Below, one piece after another: positions 11,820-61,242 of a stretch of 64,000 bases of DNA (positions are counted from its first letter, which is position 1; every line of letters begins with the position of its first letter). The position numbers and the translations under genes are program-made. Source of the stretch: a virus; IMG/VR virus record IMGVR_UViG_3300045988_126785, positions 1 through 64,000 of that record, one strand, 5' to 3'. The notes beneath the pieces were generated by a model. It was not told the DNA's origin. It did no database searches and was given only the letters and a program-made list of their open reading frames with translations.

Positions 11820-13721
11820 ATGATCGCATATCTGGAAACGCAAAATCGTTACGGCGAGAAAGAACTCTGTGCGCTTGTTGATGGCGTTGAAATCGCCAGA
11901 ATCACGAAAACAGAAAATATGGGGAAGCCGCAATATTGCGTCGGTATTACATGGGAGCGTGAGCGCTCGGAGTTTTTAGGGCGCGCCGCCACCATTGCCG
12001 GAGCCAAAAAGCTGATCCGGCAGTGGGGTGAACAGCACCTCACTGAGGTTTCCCAGAGGACCACCGGGCAGGATGTGAAGCGTCTCCCTCAGTTTTCCGA
12101 CACCGGCTTTTACCCCACGCCCTCCAAGCTGGCTGGGCGGATGCTGGCAGGCGTCCGCTGGAAGGATGTTACCGCGATTTTGGAGCCGTCAGCCGGAAAG
12201 GGTGATTTGGCGGATGCCGCCCGGAAATTCGTCGAGGATTACCACAATGACCGGAAGGTCTGCGTAGACAAGCGGGAACCGTATATCGACTGCGTAGAGA
12301 TTGACCCTGATCTTGCCCTTATCCTGAAGGGCAAAGGCTATCCCGTGGTCTCCGATGATTTCCTGACCTTCCATACATTCAAGCAGTATGACCTGATCCT
12401 CATGAACCCTCCCTTTGAGAACGGAGATGAACACCTGCTCAAAGCCTTGTCGCTTATGGAACGCGGCGGCCAGATTGTTTGTCTGTTGAATGCGGAAACC
12501 ATCCGAAACCCCTACACCAACCGCCGAAAGGTCCTGCGTCAGAAGCTCTCAGAGTACAATGCAAAAATCGAATTTATCGAAAATGCGTTTGCCCACGCCC
12601 AGCGGAAAACCAATGTGGAAATCGCCATGATCTTCGTTGACATTCCCTACCCAAAGCCAGAGTCCGATATTTTTGAGCATTTAAAGCGTTCTCGTGAAGA
12701 AACATACACCGCTGCGGATGGCCCAACCGCCTTGGCGTCTGCCGACTGGCTGCAAAACATGATCGACGGGTTCCAGTTTGAGGCAGAGCTGGGGAATAAG
12801 CTAATCCGGGAATATCAAGGTCTCTGTCCCTACCTGATGAATGGCAGCACCACCTATGAAAAGCCGCTCCTGGAACTCACTTGCTCGGAAAGGGGGCGCG
12901 GAAATGACGCTGGACTTCCTAACGTCTATCTCCGGGCACTTCGCGGCAAGTATTGGCGCACTCTGCTGTCCCGCCCGGAACTCACTGGCAAAATGACCTC
13001 CGCCATGCGGCAGGACTATCAGGAAAAAATCGAAACTCTCTCCGCCTATGACTTTAGCCGGTACAATATTGAAACCGTCATGCGTGAGATCGCCCACCAG
13101 CTTGCACAAGGCGTGGAAGAATCCATTCTGAATCTCTTTGAGACCTTCACGGCGAAACACGCCTGGTATCCTGAGTGTGCCAACAACATCCATTATTACA
13201 ATGGCTGGGCCACCAACAAGGCCCACAAAATCGGCATGAAGGTGATCGTCCCGGCTTCCGGCTGCTATGCCGACTCATGGCGCGACGAAAAGCTGGACAC
13301 ATACCGGGTCAATTCCATGATCTCCGACTTGGAGCGCGCTATGAACTATCTGGACCGTGGCGAAACTTACTGCCATATCCCGGTAGATGTGGCCATTCTT
13401 CGCGCAAATGGCGTCAACAGCAATAAGGCGTCCTTCACCTATTTTGACTGCGTTTTCTATAAGAAAGGAACCTGCCATATCAAGTTCAAGCCTAACGCAG
13501 TTCGTATCATTGACCGCCTGAATATCTTTGCCGGTCAGCACAAAAACTGGCTTCCCCCTGTCTATGGAAAGAAGCATTATCAGGACATGACACCGGAGGA
13601 ACAGGCAGTGATCGACGAGTTCCAGGGCGAAGCAGCTTACGAGTCCGTATTGTCTGATCCGTCTATGCTGATCTCCGCCGGGGACATTGCCCTCGCCGCC
13701 CTTCCGTCCTCCAATCCATGA
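11820..13721 (+). CDS. N6-adenine DNA methyltransferase with a long C-terminal (DUF4942-like) domain
   Basis: Contains ILEPSAGKGDL (motif I) and DLILMNPPFENGDEHL (NPPF). Confidence 0.8.
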   Translation: MIAYLETQNRYGEKELCALVDGVEIARITKTENMGKPQYCVGITWERERSEFLGRAATIAGAKKLIRQWGEQHLTEVSQRTTGQDVKRLPQFSDTGFYPTPSKLAGRMLAGVRWKDVTAILEPSAGKGDLADAARKFVEDYHNDRKVCVDKREPYIDCVEIDPDLALILKGKGYPVVSDDFLTFHTFKQYDLILMNPPFENGDEHLLKALSLMERGGQIVCLLNAETIRNPYTNRRKVLRQKLSEYNAKIEFIENAFAHAQRKTNVEIAMIFVDIPYPKPESDIFEHLKRSREETYTAADGPTALASADWLQNMIDGFQFEAELGNKLIREYQGLCPYLMNGSTTYEKPLLELTCSERGRGNDAGLPNVYLRALRGKYWRTLLSRPELTGKMTSAMRQDYQEKIETLSAYDFSRYNIETVMREIAHQLAQGVEESILNLFETFTAKHAWYPECANNIHYYNGWATNKAHKIGMKVIVPASGCYADSWRDEKLDTYRVNSMISDLERAMNYLDRGETYCHIPVDVAILRANGVNSNKASFTYFDCVFYKKGTCHIKFKPNAVRIIDRLNIFAGQHKNWLPPVYGKKHYQDMTPEEQAVIDEFQGEAAYESVLSDPSMLISAGDIALAALPSSNP

Positions 13722-13734
13722 AAGGAACCGTTCC

Positions 13735-14163
13735 ATGAATTATAAAGCCATGAAGTACAACGCATTGATTGATGATCTTGTTTCGCTTGCCAAAGAGTCG
13801 CATGATTTCCGAGAGTCTATCGTCTGCACGGAGGCGTCAACAACGATCATGCATCTTTTTAGCGAAAACGAACGGCTTTCGATGGAGCTGAAGCACATGG
13901 AAGAAGCTGCCGCAAGCGCCAAGTCTGAAAAGTTCAGTCTGCAAGATTTCGTCCGCACAAACCTGATCCCTCCCAAGCAGCGGGTGTGCCTGTGTGAACA
14001 AATTGACAGCGACTTTGCGAGACCAGCTTGGAGCGGCCCGTTTTGTGAACTTCCGCAGTCTTATACCCAGCGCGCCGTGGATAAGGTATTTGTCCCGATT
14101 TCCGATGCGGCCCTGGAATGCTACCGCTTTACCCTTTACATCATTTTGCGCCCGGAATCCTAA
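13735..14163 (+). CDS. hypothetical protein (142 aa)
   Basis: Internal start MNYKAMK after a GAAAGGA RBS. AT-richer than its flanks. Confidence 0.5.
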   Translation: MNYKAMKYNALIDDLVSLAKESHDFRESIVCTEASTTIMHLFSENERLSMELKHMEEAAASAKSEKFSLQDFVRTNLIPPKQRVCLCEQIDSDFARPAWSGPFCELPQSYTQRAVDKVFVPISDAALECYRFTLYIILRPES

Positions 14164-14167
14164 ATGT

Positions 14168-14198
14168 CAAAAACCCCCTTGGAGGGGTATCGTATAAT
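14168..14198 (+). promoter_or_regulatory. promoter-like motif CAAAAACCCCCTTGG-N10-TATAAT, copy 2 of 3
   Basis: Heads the tRNA/ncRNA block. The 22-mer at 14165-14186 is identical to 21400-21421. Confidence 0.5.
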
Positions 14199-14308
14199 AA
14201 AATCAAGGGCGAGATAGACGCCGCCCTTGCTTTCCATCTTTCTATCTTCCCTCACGCACGGCGGCTGCCGGCCTACCCAACGGCAGCCGCCAAACTCCAA
14301 AACAGCAT

Positions 14309-14407
14309 GGGCGAAAATCGTGCGGTCACGCACGCGGACTAATCTCCCGCGTGAACAGGCTTTTCCATTCGGCTTGTTTCCCGGTTCAACTCCGGTTTCG
14401 CTCACCA
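14309..14407 (+). ncRNA. class-II-shaped tRNA-like element with a 9-nt anticodon loop (not assignable)
   Basis: Acceptor GGGCGAA/TTCGCTC plus A-CCA. T arm CCGG-TTCAACT-CCGG. Long variable arm with an 8-bp stem. D hairpin CGTG-CGGT-CACG. The central stem CACGCGG/CCGCGTG has the loop ACTAATCTC. Confidence 0.4.
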
Positions 14408-14517
14408 GCGGCGCGGATGCCGCACGTAGTTATCTCCTACCTTCCAAGCGTGGCCCGTAAGTACACGCTCGCCGTTCTCGGAGCGGTGCCCCGGTGCAAC
14501 CCCGGCAGGGCAGCAAC

Positions 14518-14591
14518 GCGGATATAGTTCATCGGCAGAACGGCGGCTTCCCAAGCCGCGAAGGTGGGTTCGATTCCCATTATCCGCTCCA
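14518..14591 (+). tRNA. tRNA-Gly (CCC)
   Basis: Hand-folded cloverleaf: GCGGATA/TATCCGC, D stem GTTC/GAAC, anticodon stem GCGGC/GCCGC with loop TTCCCAA, T loop TTCGATT, then T-CCA. Confidence 0.85.
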
Positions 14592-14703
14592 AGGGTGCAC
14601 GAGCAGCGCCCTGCATGGATCGCAAAGCCTCCTGAATGTGTATGACAGCCCGGAAAGACGGGCCGCCACATCACCCGCCATGGCGCAAACAAGGCGGGTC
14701 TAT

Positions 14704-14773
14704 GCAGATGTCCAACCGGTGCTTTTTGTCCTTTCCACCCGGGAGCCGGGGACCTCTCCTGCCGTCTGCACCA
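14704..14773 (+). ncRNA. tRNA-like mini-element U1 (no D arm, non-canonical T loop)
   Basis: Acceptor GCAGATG/CGTCTGC plus A-CCA. It shares both ends and a GGAG-N10-CTCC arm with U2. Confidence 0.3.
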
Positions 14774-14930
14774 TGCCCTCCCACATAAGAGGTGGTTACT
14801 CTATAAACCGTAGTGGGCATGAAACCTCCATATCTGGCAGTGGAGTCGGCGGGTTGATACAGCCGCTATCGGGACGGTATTCTCGGAGAACCTGAGCGAC
14901 ATGACCGCCGGGAAAGACCGGCATCTATAC

Positions 14931-14993
14931 GCAGACGTCCAAGCCGCGGCCGATCACGCGGGGAGTTGGGGGCATCTCCAACCGTCTGCACCA
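14931..14993 (+). ncRNA. tRNA-like mini-element U2 (63 nt)
   Basis: Acceptor GCAGACG/CGTCTGC plus A-CCA. Central hairpin CCGCG-GCCGATCA-CGCGG. Flush hairpin GTTGG-GGGCATCT-CCAAC. Confidence 0.3.
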
Positions 14994-15184
14994 TGGCGGG
15001 GAACGTTTCGGGTGATGCGTCTCTGCCAGTGCTCCCCAAAAATATAAGCTGCGGCCTGCAAAAGCAGCTCGTCTTCGGCAACTGGTACTTGCCCTTGACG
15101 CCCCGGTGCAATTCCGGTTGGGCATAGGACCCCTCGCACCTCTCGTCCAGGGTTCCCTGACGAAGTGTCCCAGAGGGGACATTT

Positions 15185-15259
15185 GCAGACGTAGCTCAGT
15201 AGGTTAGAGCACCCCCGAAGTGGGGAACGATGCAGGTTCAAGTCCTGCCGTCTGCACCA
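15185..15259 (+). ncRNA. tRNA-like element U3: canonical D and T arms but a 5-nt anticodon loop
   Basis: GCAGACG TA GCTC-AGTAGGTTA-GAGC A, then CCCCC-GAAGT-GGGGA, then ACGAT, then GCAGG-TTCAAGT-CCTGC, then CGTCTGC A CCA. Confidence 0.45.
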
Positions 15260-15432
15260 AATCCCAAAGCTGACAGCGTACAGGGGCAATATTGCGGCAA
15301 GCCCGTACTTGGCGAGCGTTGTGTCCCGTCAGCAGGGCGTGGCTCCGCGAAGGGCCGTTCGATTTGCCCGCGTTGAATCGAGCGTTACTTAGAACACGTA
15401 CCCGCTCCGGCGGGTACGCAAACGCGGGATAT

Positions 15433-15509
15433 AGGGGCGAATGTTCCAAGGCTGGCGAGGCGGTCTCCAAAACCGCTTGGGTGGGTTCGATTCCCAACCG
15501 TCCCTGCCA
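15433..15509 (+). tRNA. tRNA-Trp (CCA) with an irregular D arm and T/acceptor junction
   Basis: Acceptor AGGGGCG/CGTCCCT plus G-CCA. Anticodon stem GCGGT/ACCGC with loop CTCCAAA. T loop TTCGATT. Positions 8-9 are AA, the D stem pairs poorly, and there is 1 extra nt before the acceptor 3' strand. Confidence 0.6.
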
Positions 15510-15781
15510 ACTCTAAACGGAGTCACCAACGGAGTATAAACAAGTGGGGTAACCGTGGAAACCGGAGATATGCGGCATAGGTGCCCCGTAAGGGGAGACC
15601 ACAGCGAGCGACGCCAAATGCTGGCCGAAGCGCTAAAGCAGGGCAGGACTGCAATGCCGTACCATCCCGGCCAGCGGGCGAGGAAGCGTAAAAAGCTAAG
15701 TATCAGGCGGCTGGTATAATTGCCAAGTTCCTGATGGCTGGTAGGAAGACGCAGCGCAGCCGGGAGCCTATGTAAAAATAC
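15510..15781 (+). ncRNA. 272-nt ORF-free, hairpin-rich spacer (candidate structured RNA)
   Basis: CCCC-GTAA-GGGG at 15584-15595. A 7-bp pairing CTGGCCG/CGGCCAG (15620-26 with 15668-74). ATCAGG/CCTGAT (15702-07 with 15729-34). It also contains TGGTATAAT (15712-15720), an extended -10. Confidence 0.3.
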
Positions 15782-59155: not shown

Positions 59156-59349
59156 GGCGTTCCACCTCCCAGCATGACCTTTGCCAAAAGAACCGCCAGC
59201 AGCAGTAAAAAGCAAATTCCGCCGATCATGGCGGAGGTGTCCGCCCGCTCCCGCCGCCGCTGTTCTCTGGTTTTGCGGTTCTTCTCCGCCCGCCGCCGTT
59301 CAAGTTCCCAGTAGGCTTCCTGTTCCCAATAATCGTTGCCGTGCTTCAT
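59152..59349 (-). CDS. small protein with a basic coil and C-terminal TM helix
   Basis: Internal start MKHGNDYW with an ATGA overlap. Confidence 0.4.
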   Translation of the reverse strand: MKHGNDYWEQEAYWELERRRAEKNRKTREQRRRERADTSAMIGGICFLLLLAVLLAKVMLGGGTP

Positions 59350-61242
59350 GTCCCGCTCCTTTCGTTTCCGCATGGGAACAAAAACCGTCCCATGTCTCCC
59401 GGTTCCTCTACCGTGCCGAACCGACGTTTGGTCACGGCGATTGGGAACTCCTCAATCTCGCTGGCCCATAGGCACGTTCCGCGTCCGTTCAACTGCTCCC
59501 AAATCAGCGGAAAACCGCCTATTCCATCGAACAAACTCGCCATAGTCGCATTTCGCTCGTAGTTGCCGCACAGCCGTTTCAGCAGCCATTTCCACGGCGG
59601 CAGGGCGATGGAGTTGCCCAGTGCCTTATACCGGGGGCTGTCCGCGTCCTTGTGGCGCTTGCCCTTGCTGTCCGTCCACTCGCCCAAGTCGGTCCAGTGG
59701 TCAGGGAAGCCTTGCAGCCGTTCGCACTCCAACGGGGTCAGACGGCGAACCACCATGTTTTGGCGGACCGTATTGTTCAGGTTCAGGCTTTGGCCTTCGC
59801 TTTCCTTTGCCTGCAAGGTTCCGTTGATCTCCCCGCCCTCGGTGAAATTTCGGCAATCTACGCTTGCGACATACGCGGCCATATCTGTTCGGTATGGGTC
59901 ATTGGCTTTTGCTCTTAATGCTGGGGAAATTTCGCTTGATACCACCAGCATATCGTTGTAAGCGTCCTGCCCGTTATAGCTCCCTGCGTGTGCTCCGGGC
60001 GATAAAGTTCCGGTTGTTTTCTGGTACGTCAGTGGAATCTGATTGCCGCCGGTTCCCATACGGGCTTGCAGACTGGGCGCTACCTCGCCGCAGTCCCGGA
60101 TGACGTCGCAGGCGTGGCTCATATCAAGCACGGCGCACGGTACATGGGCATTGGCGTTCAGCGTGTGACATGGTTTCCCGAAGTCAGGAATACTCCCATT
60201 CTGCTTGCTGGTGATCTGCGTAGTATCAAACGCCATGCCCGCTGGCTGGTGCCCATGCTCCTGTGCTCTCAGCGTACCGGCAACATCATGGCTCACACCC
60301 ATCACATTCCCGCCCTGATCGTTCAGGCACATCACCGCCGGTTTATTCCCTCCGCACTCCGCGTTCAGCGTAGGGGCCTGTTTCTCGGCGTATCCGATGC
60401 TCCGGGCCTGTTCGCTGTTCCCCAGCTTAAACCCGGCGCATACAACTGGCTGGTTGTTCCCGCTCATGCCTGCGGAAGCGGTCAAGGTCGGTGCACGGTC
60501 ATCGCTTCGTACCTCGGCCCCGCCTTGCTGAGTTGCCATGCAGAAAAGCGTCTGGTCATTCCCTGCCTTAATCGTTCCGCTTTTCTCCGTCTGGACTAAG
60601 GCTCCTTTTCCGCCTCCGTCGCATCCTCCCCTGATTCGGACTGCGTAAGCAGCACCGCTTTCAGCATCGGCGGAAGGTCTTTCCCCCTCCGCTCCGCTCT
60701 CCGCAGGATACCCTGACACGCTTTTGCGCTCAAACAGTATTTCCCATGCGGTGTCGCCTCCAAAATCTGCGACAAGCGCGATTCTACGGCGACGTTGGGG
60801 GACTCCCCAGTGTTGCGCATCGAGCACTCGCCACGCAACGCTCCATCGTCCTCCCATTTCATCGTGGTATCCCCCCCAGGTGTTCCAACCTTTTTCAGGC
60901 ACTTCAATATCGGGGGCTTCCGGTTCTGCGATGCGGATGGCTTCTTCGAGGACGGCTGCGAAGTCTTTTCCGCCGTTGCTTGAGAAGGCTCCGGGAACAT
61001 TTTCCCAGACCATATACCGAGGTCGCACAAACTCACCTGTTCGCCCCATTCTTCTGTCACGTTCTCTCATCTCCTTGATAATCCGTATTTGCTCCATATA
61101 CAGGCCGGAACGCGCCCCAGCCAGTCCCGCCCGCTTTCCAGCAATGGAAAGATCCTGTCTAACAAGGTGAACCACCTATCACACAATCCACGGGTTCTAC
61201 TTCATTTCCGTGAATTTTTGTGACATCTCCATAATGCTTCAC
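59346..61242 (-). pseudogene. DNA (cytosine-5) methyltransferase, motif-permuted and interrupted at the catalytic PC-Q
   Basis: Frame A runs from GTG 61242 and reads VKHYGDVTKIHGNEVEPVDCVIGGSPC, then TAG (61159-61161). Frame +1 (track ORF) reads QDLSIAGKRAG...ENVPG...QGFP...GNSIALP, then continues in frame into MASLFDGIGGFPL...ASEIEEF (motifs I-II, from 59543). Confidence 0.6.

Follow-up and report, generated by a model that had tools for sequence, protein, structure and literature searches.

A phage array of tRNAs, tRNA-like elements, and small structured RNAs that are exchanged as cassettes

The stretch analyzed here (the window; 64,000 nt, positions 1 to 64,000 of IMG/VR record IMGVR_UViG_3300045988_126785) is a siphovirus-like genome of a gut phage of ~70 kb. 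It carries an RNA block at 14164-15884, on the early-gene plus strand, between an unknown open reading frame (ORF) and an HU-like gene. The block holds eight co-oriented elements (E1 to E8), in each of which a 7-bp acceptor stem is joined by a discriminator base and a CCA encoded in the genome, and these are separated by segments that we label S1 to S7, after a 5' leader (S0). Across related phages the block has the architecture of an array, behaves as a set of cassettes, and is conserved in both structure and sequence. The reading that we favor, and consider fairly probable, is that of a polycistronic operon of tRNAs and tRNA-like elements that would be processed to small stable RNAs. The kind of locus is known from phage tRNA clusters that carry additional stable RNAs; this variant of the array and several of its RNA classes appear to be undescribed.

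Elements were located by scanning the block on both strands for a 7-bp stem followed by N-CCA, with dinucleotide shuffles as the control. The scan found eight elements on the plus strand and one on the minus strand, against a shuffle mean of 1.35 (Table 1). ARAGORN reported four tRNAs in the block (Gly-CCC, one undetermined, Trp-CCA, and Gln-UUG) and no tmRNA; four of the eight elements are confirmed as tRNA by ARAGORN and Rfam. E2 and E8 combine D and T loops with an anticodon loop of 7 nt and score above the Rfam threshold. Fourteen of 15 syntenic phages carry E2 at 98.6-100% identity, and E8 is canonical except for a U-to-C change at T-loop position 55 in the window copy, where homologues read TTCGAAT. 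The general Rfam tRNA model does not match E6, which reaches 36.8 bits with the tRNA-Sec model (gathering score, 47) and which 8 of 15 syntenic phages share at 98.7-100% identity. E3, E4, and E7 have no tRNA match at E <= 10. Plausibly, then, the Gly-CCC, Trp-CCA, and Gln-UUG tRNAs can decode, and the other five elements keep the acceptor end on remodeled bodies. tRNA finders report just three to four of the eight elements here; the remainder would stay "intergenic." An earlier note on this DNA, made from the sequence alone, had placed the spacer boundaries correctly for six elements, but its last "spacer" (15510-15781) hides the cloverleaf E7; it also missed E1, which lies upstream of where it began, and took E3 to E5 as tRNAs.

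Table 1. Features of the RNA block and its flanks. MFE, minimum free energy; z, z-score.
Feature	Positions	Strand	Basis or character
Unknown ORF, 158 aa	13687-14163	+	Flanks block 5'
S0, 5' leader	14164-14308	+	TATAAT 14193-14198; hairpins 14174-14187 and 14204-14229; CU-rich tract; 11-bp hairpin 14260-14291
E1, 99 nt, class-II-like	14309-14407	+	Acceptor+CCA scan; MFE cloverleaf, z = -3.6
S1, 110 nt	14408-14517	+	T-arm-like hairpin CCGG-UGCAACC-CCGG 14488-14505
E2, canonical tRNA-Gly(CCC)	14518-14591	+	ARAGORN; Rfam tRNA 62.3 bits
S2, 112 nt	14592-14703	+	Hairpin GCCCG-GAAAGA-CGGGC 14648-14663
E3, tRNA-like, 70 nt	14704-14773	+	Acceptor GCAGAUG/CGUCUGC; acceptor+CCA scan
S3, 157 nt	14774-14930	+	Hairpin GCCGG-GAAAGA-CCGGC 14907-14922
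E4, tRNA-like three-way junction, 63 nt	14931-14993	+	Acceptor GCAGACG/CGUCUGC; MFE z = -3.2
S4, 191 nt	14994-15184	+	Hairpin; T-arm-like CCGG-UGCAAUU-CCGG 15100-15117; terminal hairpin 15128-15181
E5, 75 nt	15185-15259	+	Acceptor GCAGACG/CGUCUGC; ARAGORN "tRNA-???"; Rfam tRNA 55 bits
S5, 173 nt	15260-15432	+	T-loop-like GUUCGAUU segment; 8-bp hairpin 15398-15417
E6, tRNA-Trp(CCA)	15433-15509	+	ARAGORN; acceptor and anticodon arms normal, G73, D arm aberrant
S6, 62-nt E7 leader	15510-15571	+	One of at least 12 alternative E7 leaders; that of this phage group
E7, 93-nt four-way-junction cloverleaf	15572-15664	+	Consensus fold; no Rfam family
S7, 101-nt rod-like RNA	15665-15765	+	Consensus fold; no Rfam family
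A-rich linker before tRNA-Gln	15766-15781	+	Sequence
E8, tRNA-Gln(UUG)	15782-15856	+	ARAGORN; Rfam 62.3 bits
HU-like gene	15885-16181	+	Flanks block 3'

The signal in the block is comparative, with several parts conserved in more than 100 phage contigs. Two structured pieces lie within that last "spacer." E7 has a 7-bp acceptor-like stem (GCGGCAU/AUGCCGU) and ends in A73 and CCA. Its arm 1 is capped by the GNRA loop GUAA and corresponds to the CCCC-GTAA-GGGG hairpin that the earlier note had correctly seen at 15584-15595; arm 2 is interrupted by a conserved internal loop, AGYGA/AAG, and varies at its tip, and arm 3 has 4 bp and the loop GGCAGGA. A kink-turn or sarcin-ricin reading of the AGYGA/AAG loop, compared by eye only, fits neither consensus and was rejected. 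Exact copies of a 23-mer of E7, AAGCAGGGCAGGACTGCAATGCC, are present in more than 119 IMG/VR contigs, yet among 185,579 species-representative genomes just one has it, on a 69-kb contig that belongs to an uncultured metagenome-assembled genome. The 75 distinct versions of E7 differ mainly in two hairpins. In the consensus fold 96.4% of cells are paired, and seven pairs have compensatory change; shuffles give 2.5 such pairs and slid controls no more than 2. A covariance model run over 192 loci and the window (~1.7 Mb) found near-identical copies only (at least 97 bits for full-length copies) and no divergent relatives. It matched both in loci selected by the seed and in 24 of 92 loci picked for another element; E7 is thus either present almost unchanged or absent.

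S7, directly downstream, is closed by helix P1, in which UCCCGGC (15665-15671) pairs with GCCGGGA (15759-15765). Its internal loops GGCGAGGAA and GGAAGA are conserved, and its tip is variable. Among 20 distinct sequences, 13 of 25 pairs have compensatory change, and 97.8% of cells are paired, versus 21-48% in slid controls. By these comparative criteria, E7 and S7 are well-supported RNA classes absent from Rfam, and E7, with its more than 119 viral contigs, and the recurrent S7 are well-defined candidates for new RNA families. To this extent the weaker intuition of the earlier note, that undescribed conserved structured RNAs lie among the phage tRNA genes, is borne out.

To describe how the block varies, we compared it with related IMG/VR contigs, some of which are named below by L numbers. 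The blastn coverage of the block by 137 loci steps exactly at element borders. The 16 syntenic phages carry differing subsets of the elements, and in them and in more than 200 other contigs, elements and spacers have been gained, lost, and recombined as cassettes. Spacer lengths in syntenic phages are discrete (110, 112, 157, 171, 177, 191, 140, 173, 62, and 117 nt), and the 157-nt spacer precedes E4, a 72-nt variant, or an 81-nt variant. In a near-twin, L003, a single 72-nt element stands where the window has E4-S4-E5. This exchange is bounded by the shared acceptor sequences GCAGACGT and CCGTCTGCACCA, and such GCAGACGT...CCGTCTGCACCA pairs are likely the crossover sites. E7 has at least 12 kinds of neighbor on its 5' side and at least 10 kinds on its 3' side. 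It is also shared by phages with differing flanks and gene sets, namely ~40-kb phages, whose arrays lie just upstream of the terminase genes, and the ~70-kb window phage.

The earlier note had proposed a different architecture, in which the spacers, with or without the tRNAs, fold as one large RNA of the ROOL/GOLLD type or of an undescribed one. This is now highly improbable. The setting does resemble that of GOLLD and ROOL, which occupy ORF-poor regions beside tRNAs in phages (PMC5737381) and, like the block, adjoin tRNA genes in phages or prophages (PMC5737381; PMC12286853); the block is 1.7 kb long, ORF-poor, beside tRNAs in a phage, and has many local hairpins. Yet its pieces are independent and reordered, gained, lost, and recombined at the borders of the CCA-ending elements (of 15 syntenic phages, only 4 have E7 and S7, and 9 have E4), which excludes a fixed large RNA. 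The long-range pairing suggested between CTGGCCG (15620) and CGGCCAG (15668) fares no better: both motifs are present, but position 15620 falls within a variable hairpin of E7 and position 15668 within helix P1 of S7, where it covaries with 15759-15765, so that each half covaries elsewhere. The folding energy of 15510-15781 is ordinary (z = -0.85).

We searched Rfam 15 at gathering thresholds on the whole window and at E <= 10 on 13900-16400. The first search returned three tRNAs and nothing else in all 64 kb, and the second returned tRNA-clan matches plus three weak, chance-level non-tRNA matches. Of these last, Plastid-ycf2, antisense to two tRNAs (best E, 0.0017), was rejected as a chance or tRNA mirror match, and abiF (E, 4.5) and CRISPR-DR36 (E, 7) were rejected as chance. 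The check that the note had proposed thus found no ROOL, GOLLD, HEARO, raiA, RNase P, tmRNA, or group I intron in the window, and the ROOL and GOLLD models had no match in 26 related loci either, so that neither membership in these families nor kinship with them is seen. The general description of the spacers must also be revised. The block is hardly GC-rich (0.59, compared with 0.569 for the window; single spacers, 0.47-0.67). Nor is it dense in stable hairpins, since the dinucleotide-controlled MFE z-scores of the spacers run from -1.9 to +1.2; the leader at 14164-14308 is the sole outlier (z = -3.7), because of its perfect 11-bp stem, which the note had described correctly (14260-14270/14281-14291). 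It is not strictly ORF-free either: a mechanical ORF of 133 aa lies at 14494-14895 on the plus strand but is not credible, because it runs through tRNA genes. Among the other hairpins listed there, GTACCCGC-TCCG-GCGGGTAC is present at 15398-15417, whereas C-TTCG-G is a one-pair "stem" only, and a homologue reads TCCG.

Among the nondecoding elements, E3, E4, and E5 share the acceptor GCAGAYG/CGTCTGC, A73, and CCA and have remodeled bodies. E3 and E4 are reduced to the acceptor and two arms. E3 has neither a D nor a T loop. A tetraloop caps the 7-bp stem of its 3' arm, and this arm covaries in the family listing (GCCGGGG/CUCCGGC versus GUUGGGG/CUCCAAC). The MFE fold of the window copy alone, with a mismatch in that arm, is not significant (z = -0.3). 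E5 has canonical acceptor, D, and T arms and an anticodon arm, CCCC-CGAAGU-GGGG, that is too short for a normal anticodon loop; in the Rfam alignment its loop has 5-6 nt in place of 7. The GCAGACG family as a whole comprises 89 distinct sequences in more than 119 contigs. Its T stem occurs in five fully paired variants, and 74 of the 89 sequences are fully paired there. The region between the D and T arms takes at least eight forms. In the commonest form it is the nearly invariant CCGCGCCAGGAGGUAUG, and the odd middle region or loop CCAGGAGGUAUG of this type is less variable than the D loop of the same type. Other forms are the CGAAGU type of the window and canonical-size arms with loops such as CACAUAA or CCAAUAA, which suggest descent from a Met/Ile(CAU) tRNA. 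As judged from these alignments, the replaced face of the family is conserved at least as much as the tRNA face. A possible 7-bp pairing of the Shine-Dalgarno-like loop CCAGGAGG, from the commonest type, with CCUCCUG in leaders was not adopted, because it has no covariation and leaders are interchangeable. The same "scaffold plus insert" design is seen with a different acceptor stem at L001 5457-5549, which ARAGORN calls tRNA-Thr(CGU) yet which is 93 nt long: its acceptor (GCGGGCG), D arm, and T arm are normal, and a 39-nt region replaces the anticodon arm.

The array could, alternatively, be a decaying tRNA cluster made of pseudogenes and neutral filler, with conservation that reflects recent descent and recombination in a young group of gut phages. 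Several observations would fit such decay: the degenerate D arm of E6, the T-loop mutation in the window copy of E8, the mismatch in the 3' arm of the window E3, a truncated E1 in L010, the frequent loss of cassettes, and the near-identity of E7 copies everywhere, as recent spread predicts. However, compensatory changes keep the stems of E7, S7, the GCAGACG T stem, the E3/E4 arm, and the leader hairpins, and it is the non-tRNA parts that are most invariant, such as the loop CCAGGAGGUAUG and the E7 core. E7 also occurs in phages with differing flanks and gene sets. Finally, in comparisons with syntenic phages the three tRNAs have a median identity of 98.7-100%, E4 of 98.4%, S7 of 98.0%, and E7 of 97.8%, whereas the HU gene has 92.6% and the adjacent ORF gene 79.3%; at the level of sequence identity, the RNA genes are more conserved than the neighboring protein genes. 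We therefore regard decay as unlikely.

Some of the odd elements might instead be working, nonstandard tRNAs that take part in translation, and E1 is the obvious case. In its MFE fold the acceptor has 8 bp, the T stem 4 bp, the variable arm 9 bp, and the D stem 5 bp with a loop of 4 nt; E1 further has the T-loop TTCAACT, a 9-nt "anticodon" loop (ACUAAUCUC), A73, a G3-C70 pair, and the encoded CCA. Its homologues include a second anticodon-arm type with the loop ACUCACACC, also of 9 nt. Allo-tRNAs, as described by Mukai et al. in 2017, have a 12-bp acceptor branch split 8/4 between acceptor and T stems, a long variable arm, and a long D stem whose short D loop is a tetraloop; they are also found in Clostridia and in phage tRNA clusters, with a possible noncoding role for inactive ones (PMC5389517). 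With moderate confidence, based on a fold predicted from one sequence that has this architecture, E1 resembles an 8/4 allo-tRNA, and its weak match to the tRNA-Sec model (31.1 bits, against a gathering score of 47) recalls how allo-tRNAs were first noticed. In its identity elements it departs from them: allo-tRNAs mostly have G73 or U73 (Ser identity), whereas E1 has A73 and G3-C70, rather than the G3:U70 of Ala identity, and a loop of 9 nt instead of 7. E3, E4, E5, and E7 are neither 8/4 nor 9/3.

Under such a translational role, E1 would be a missense or frameshift decoder of the 8/4 allo-tRNA type, and the 77-nt GCAGACG variants of other phages would be decoders derived from Met/Ile(CAU) tRNAs whose loops were altered to escape anticodon nucleases. 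The 8/4 cloverleaf of E1 favors the first idea, as tRNAs of this kind are active in Escherichia coli translation (PMC5389517). The second is favored by loops such as CACAUAA, one change from the Met/Ile2 loop CUCAUAA, and by anticodon-loop mutation being a known means by which phage tRNAs evade nucleases (PMC10264068). But E3, E4, E5, and E7 of the window are without any 7-nt anticodon loop, E1 has its 9-nt loop and A73 instead of the Ser-type G73/U73, and the canonical-size GCAGACG variants are without U33. Decoding by these elements is, in our view, quite unlikely.

The operon reading that we prefer involves the following steps. The array would be transcribed as one precursor; a single transcript is likely, since all elements are on one strand, a scan found no plus-strand terminator inside the block, and arrays elsewhere end in a terminator (in L038, L040, and L046, the last element is without CCA and is directly followed by a terminator made of a hairpin and a T-run). 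Host RNase P would then cut at the 5' end of each acceptor, and 3' trimming would proceed back to the encoded CCA. The prerequisites for this processing are present, namely the 7-bp acceptor stem, the discriminator, the encoded CCA, and an AU-rich region at -1 to -4. The tRNA-like elements would thereby both punctuate the precursor and emerge as stable RNAs with a CCA end. Most spacers close with a GC hairpin that lies 3-12 nt short of the following predicted cut, and the spacers would come free as separate small RNAs.

The spacers themselves are built of recurrent modules. Their leader-terminal hairpins covary and are of two types, one with a GAAAGA loop (S2 and S3) and one with a long loop (S4). 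The GAAAGA-loop hairpin recurs with the stems GCCGG/CCGGC and GCUCG/CGAGC just 5' of tRNA-like elements elsewhere. In S4, the loop of the terminal hairpin carries the conserved GCACCUCUC...GUGNCCCA, and its stem covaries (CCCCUC/GAGGGG, CCCUCC/GGAGGG, CCCCGC/GCGGGG, and CUCCCC/GGGGAG); in other phages, the S4 module stands 5' of various tRNA-like genes, E7 included. The module GCCCCGGTGCAAYYCCGG, which the earlier note had rightly described as repeated at 14488-14505 and 15100-15117, is a T-arm-like hairpin; the 81-nt members of the GCAGACG family have its loop, UGCAAYY, as their T loop. S1 keeps a length of 108-110 nt in 14 syntenic loci, and its homologues are 94% identical. In S5, 4 of 53 predicted pairs have compensatory change among seven homologues, which is weak evidence for its fold; the S5 module lies 5' of E7 in L022. 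Leaders like S0, with a CU-rich tract, a GC hairpin, and ATAT, precede the first element in many other arrays, and the TATAAT at 14193-14198 may be a promoter.

Several smaller observations concern the two ends of the arrays. In many loci the leader reads, for example, ...CCUCAUUCUUUCCAUCCAUCCUUUCUUUCCUCCUGA-hairpin-AUAU, and in the window the CU-rich tract at 14229-14259 contains CCUCC. The reverse complement of this tract reads as a Shine-Dalgarno sequence plus ATG, which may start a divergent small gene in some phages. At 14174-14229, the 5' edge of the array, two hairpins and T-runs score as intrinsic terminators on the minus strand only. At the other end, many arrays are closed by a module of ~65 nt (GCCCYUCGGGGCGGGUAAAGUCUGCUAUGUAAGGCCAAGGGGCGGGGGCUGGUAGCAAA), found at ~4440-4530 in L002 and just 3' of E7 in L019, L020, L023, and L033. 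It lies directly before the Shine-Dalgarno sequence of the first downstream gene and is a candidate cis-regulatory leader.

In related arrays, the slot just 5' of E7 can be filled by RNAs that are already in Rfam. Namely, a drum RNA occupies L041 231-336 (78.9 bits) and a skipping-rope RNA occupies L019 2349-2443 (45.2 bits), each ending 2-7 nt before E7 (L041 339-432; L019 2451-2542). Both are orphan "highly conserved motifs" from the paper that also described ROOL (Weinberg et al. 2017), where they are followed by terminators and linked to particular protein genes (PMC5737381). They are highly conserved structured RNAs of ~80-110 nt, and they fill exactly the slot of the window spacers, immediately 5' of E7. 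This differs from the setting in that paper in that the slot is followed here by a tRNA-like element; neither model matches any spacer of the window, even at E <= 10. Thus, the sense of context in the earlier note was reasonable, but the families that it named were wrong. The 3' "terminator" hairpins of drum and skipping-rope may here be leader hairpins before a tRNA-like gene.

This arrangement gives some room to a simpler view, that the tRNA-like elements are merely RNase P "punctuation" that frees cargo of the S7, drum, and skipping-rope types and separates the flanking mRNAs. An acceptor with one coaxial arm is about the minimum RNase P substrate, and E3 and E4 can be seen as reduced to just that. 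The position of drum and skipping-rope 2-7 nt upstream of E7, the hairpins with which spacers end just before a predicted cut, and the place of the array inside a protein operon (ORF, array, HU gene) with no terminator all agree with it. Pure punctuation, however, would need neither the near-invariant 93-nt body of E7 nor several tRNA-like designs in one array, and it leaves the conserved GCAGACG replacement loops unexplained. As a full account we find it rather doubtful.

What the RNAs do is a separate question. The usual view of phage tRNA clusters is that they serve as codon supplements or replace host tRNAs that have been cleaved. In this array the majority of members are nondecoding and yet conserved, structurally maintained, and traded as cassettes, which points to a job for the tRNA shape. 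Since the nondecoding elements retain the face formed by acceptor, T-arm, and CCA but have other modules on the anticodon face, they could, speculatively, be tRNA mimics that occupy or divert proteins that recognize tRNAs. Candidates for such decoys would be host tRNA-cleaving defense nucleases, including those that cut the CCA tail, and modification or processing enzymes. In this regard, phage tRNAs are known to counter tRNA-cleaving defenses (PMC10264068), and Cas13 and Cas12a3 effectors cut the 3' CCA tails of tRNAs (10.64898/2026.08.25.746378; PMC13594972).

A broader proposal, which we offer only tentatively and hold to be possible rather than probable, is that exchangeable "RNA cassette arrays" are a diversifying counter-defense or host-takeover toolkit of human-gut phages. 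In such a toolkit, an acceptor/T-arm/CCA scaffold, often with the GCAGACG stem, would display alternative modules in place of the anticodon; orphan RNAs (E7, S7, drum, skipping-rope, and many unnamed ones) would be strung between the scaffolds; and both mimics and small RNAs would be freed by the tRNA-processing enzymes of the host itself. If true, this would supply the first functional context for drum and skipping-rope and define several new RNA classes. Their presence in the same slots ties these orphan classes to a testable setting, the predicted processing of tRNA-punctuated phage transcripts.

Several points weigh against the favored reading and its extensions. Transcription as one unit, cleavage by RNase P, and stability of the products are all steps that we infer from sequence, and a consensus scan for sigma-70-type promoters found none upstream of the array. 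The folding energies of the spacers are not unusual. The homologues of S0 to S3 and S6 are 94-96% identical, too alike for covariation to decide. The covariation of S7 mostly separates two clades and therefore reflects few independent events. E7 is nearly without divergence, its T-like arm and most of its acceptor being invariant and thus uninformative, so its conservation could reflect recent horizontal spread rather than long purifying selection. The decoy function is speculative, and no gene for a tRNA-directed enzyme is linked to the arrays; genes for an RNA ligase, a CCA-adding enzyme, a synthetase, Ro60, or DUF3800 were not found near the arrays sampled.

Comparison with known systems places the array among RNA-rich tRNA clusters. 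The tRNA region of phage T4 encodes extra stable RNAs, "species 1 and 2" (bands C and D). T4-type clusters are like the block in being co-oriented and polycistronic and in combining real tRNAs with extra small structured RNAs, and the extra RNAs of both are alike in their presumed maturation by the tRNA-processing machinery. They differ in that there is no sequence relation and that the members here are mostly nondecoding, that several of them share one acceptor stem, and that they are shuffled as cassettes among many gut phages. GOLLD (~800 nt) is a single RNA, and so is ROOL (~580 nt), both with fixed multijunction folds, whereas the block consists of independent, recombining modules of 60-190 nt. 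Further afield, mascRNA at the 3' end of MALAT1 and the tRNA-miRNA units of gammaherpesviruses use tRNA-like processing signals. Bacterial and phage Y RNAs (YrlA) carry a tRNA-like domain (PMC4201824). As is proposed for the array, in each of these a nondecoding, tRNA-shaped module is recognized by tRNA enzymes and serves to cut out or scaffold another RNA, but this is an analogy of mechanism only; YrlA has both termini in its Ro-binding stem, without a CCA-ended acceptor, and Rfam gave no YrlA match here. The literature searched had no description of the E7 or GCAGACG sequences or of tRNA-like phage arrays.

The nearest public relatives of the window phage are unannotated human-fecal phage scaffolds and IMG/VR contigs of ~70 kb. 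Its plus strand encodes a primase, an HNH nuclease, a DNA methyltransferase, the 158-aa ORF, the noncoding block, and the HU-like gene, and its minus strand encodes the tape measure, tail protein, and portal. In this phage the genes near the array include a methyltransferase and HU; in the ~40-kb phages they are those for terminase, portal, and small unknown proteins. There are two large DNA methyltransferase genes, at 11820-13721 (plus strand), directly upstream of the ORF that flanks the array, and at 59346-61175 (minus strand). About 2.7 kb downstream of the array, the ORF at 18551-19630 (plus strand) encodes a class-V aminotransferase, cysteine-desulfurase-like domain (Pfam PF00266; E, 1.8e-31; only the C-terminal two-thirds of the profile is covered), which could relate to tRNA thiolation or DNA phosphorothioation. 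Long antisense ORFs over the array, such as 15389-16105 (minus strand), cluster as a "family" in 113 loci; because they overlap tRNAs and the HU gene, we rejected them as by-products of GC-rich RNA genes, whose conservation creates an annotation trap. In one related phage, the Rfam cis-regulatory RNA GP20-b is found downstream of the array, at L024 9886-9945 (55.8 bits).

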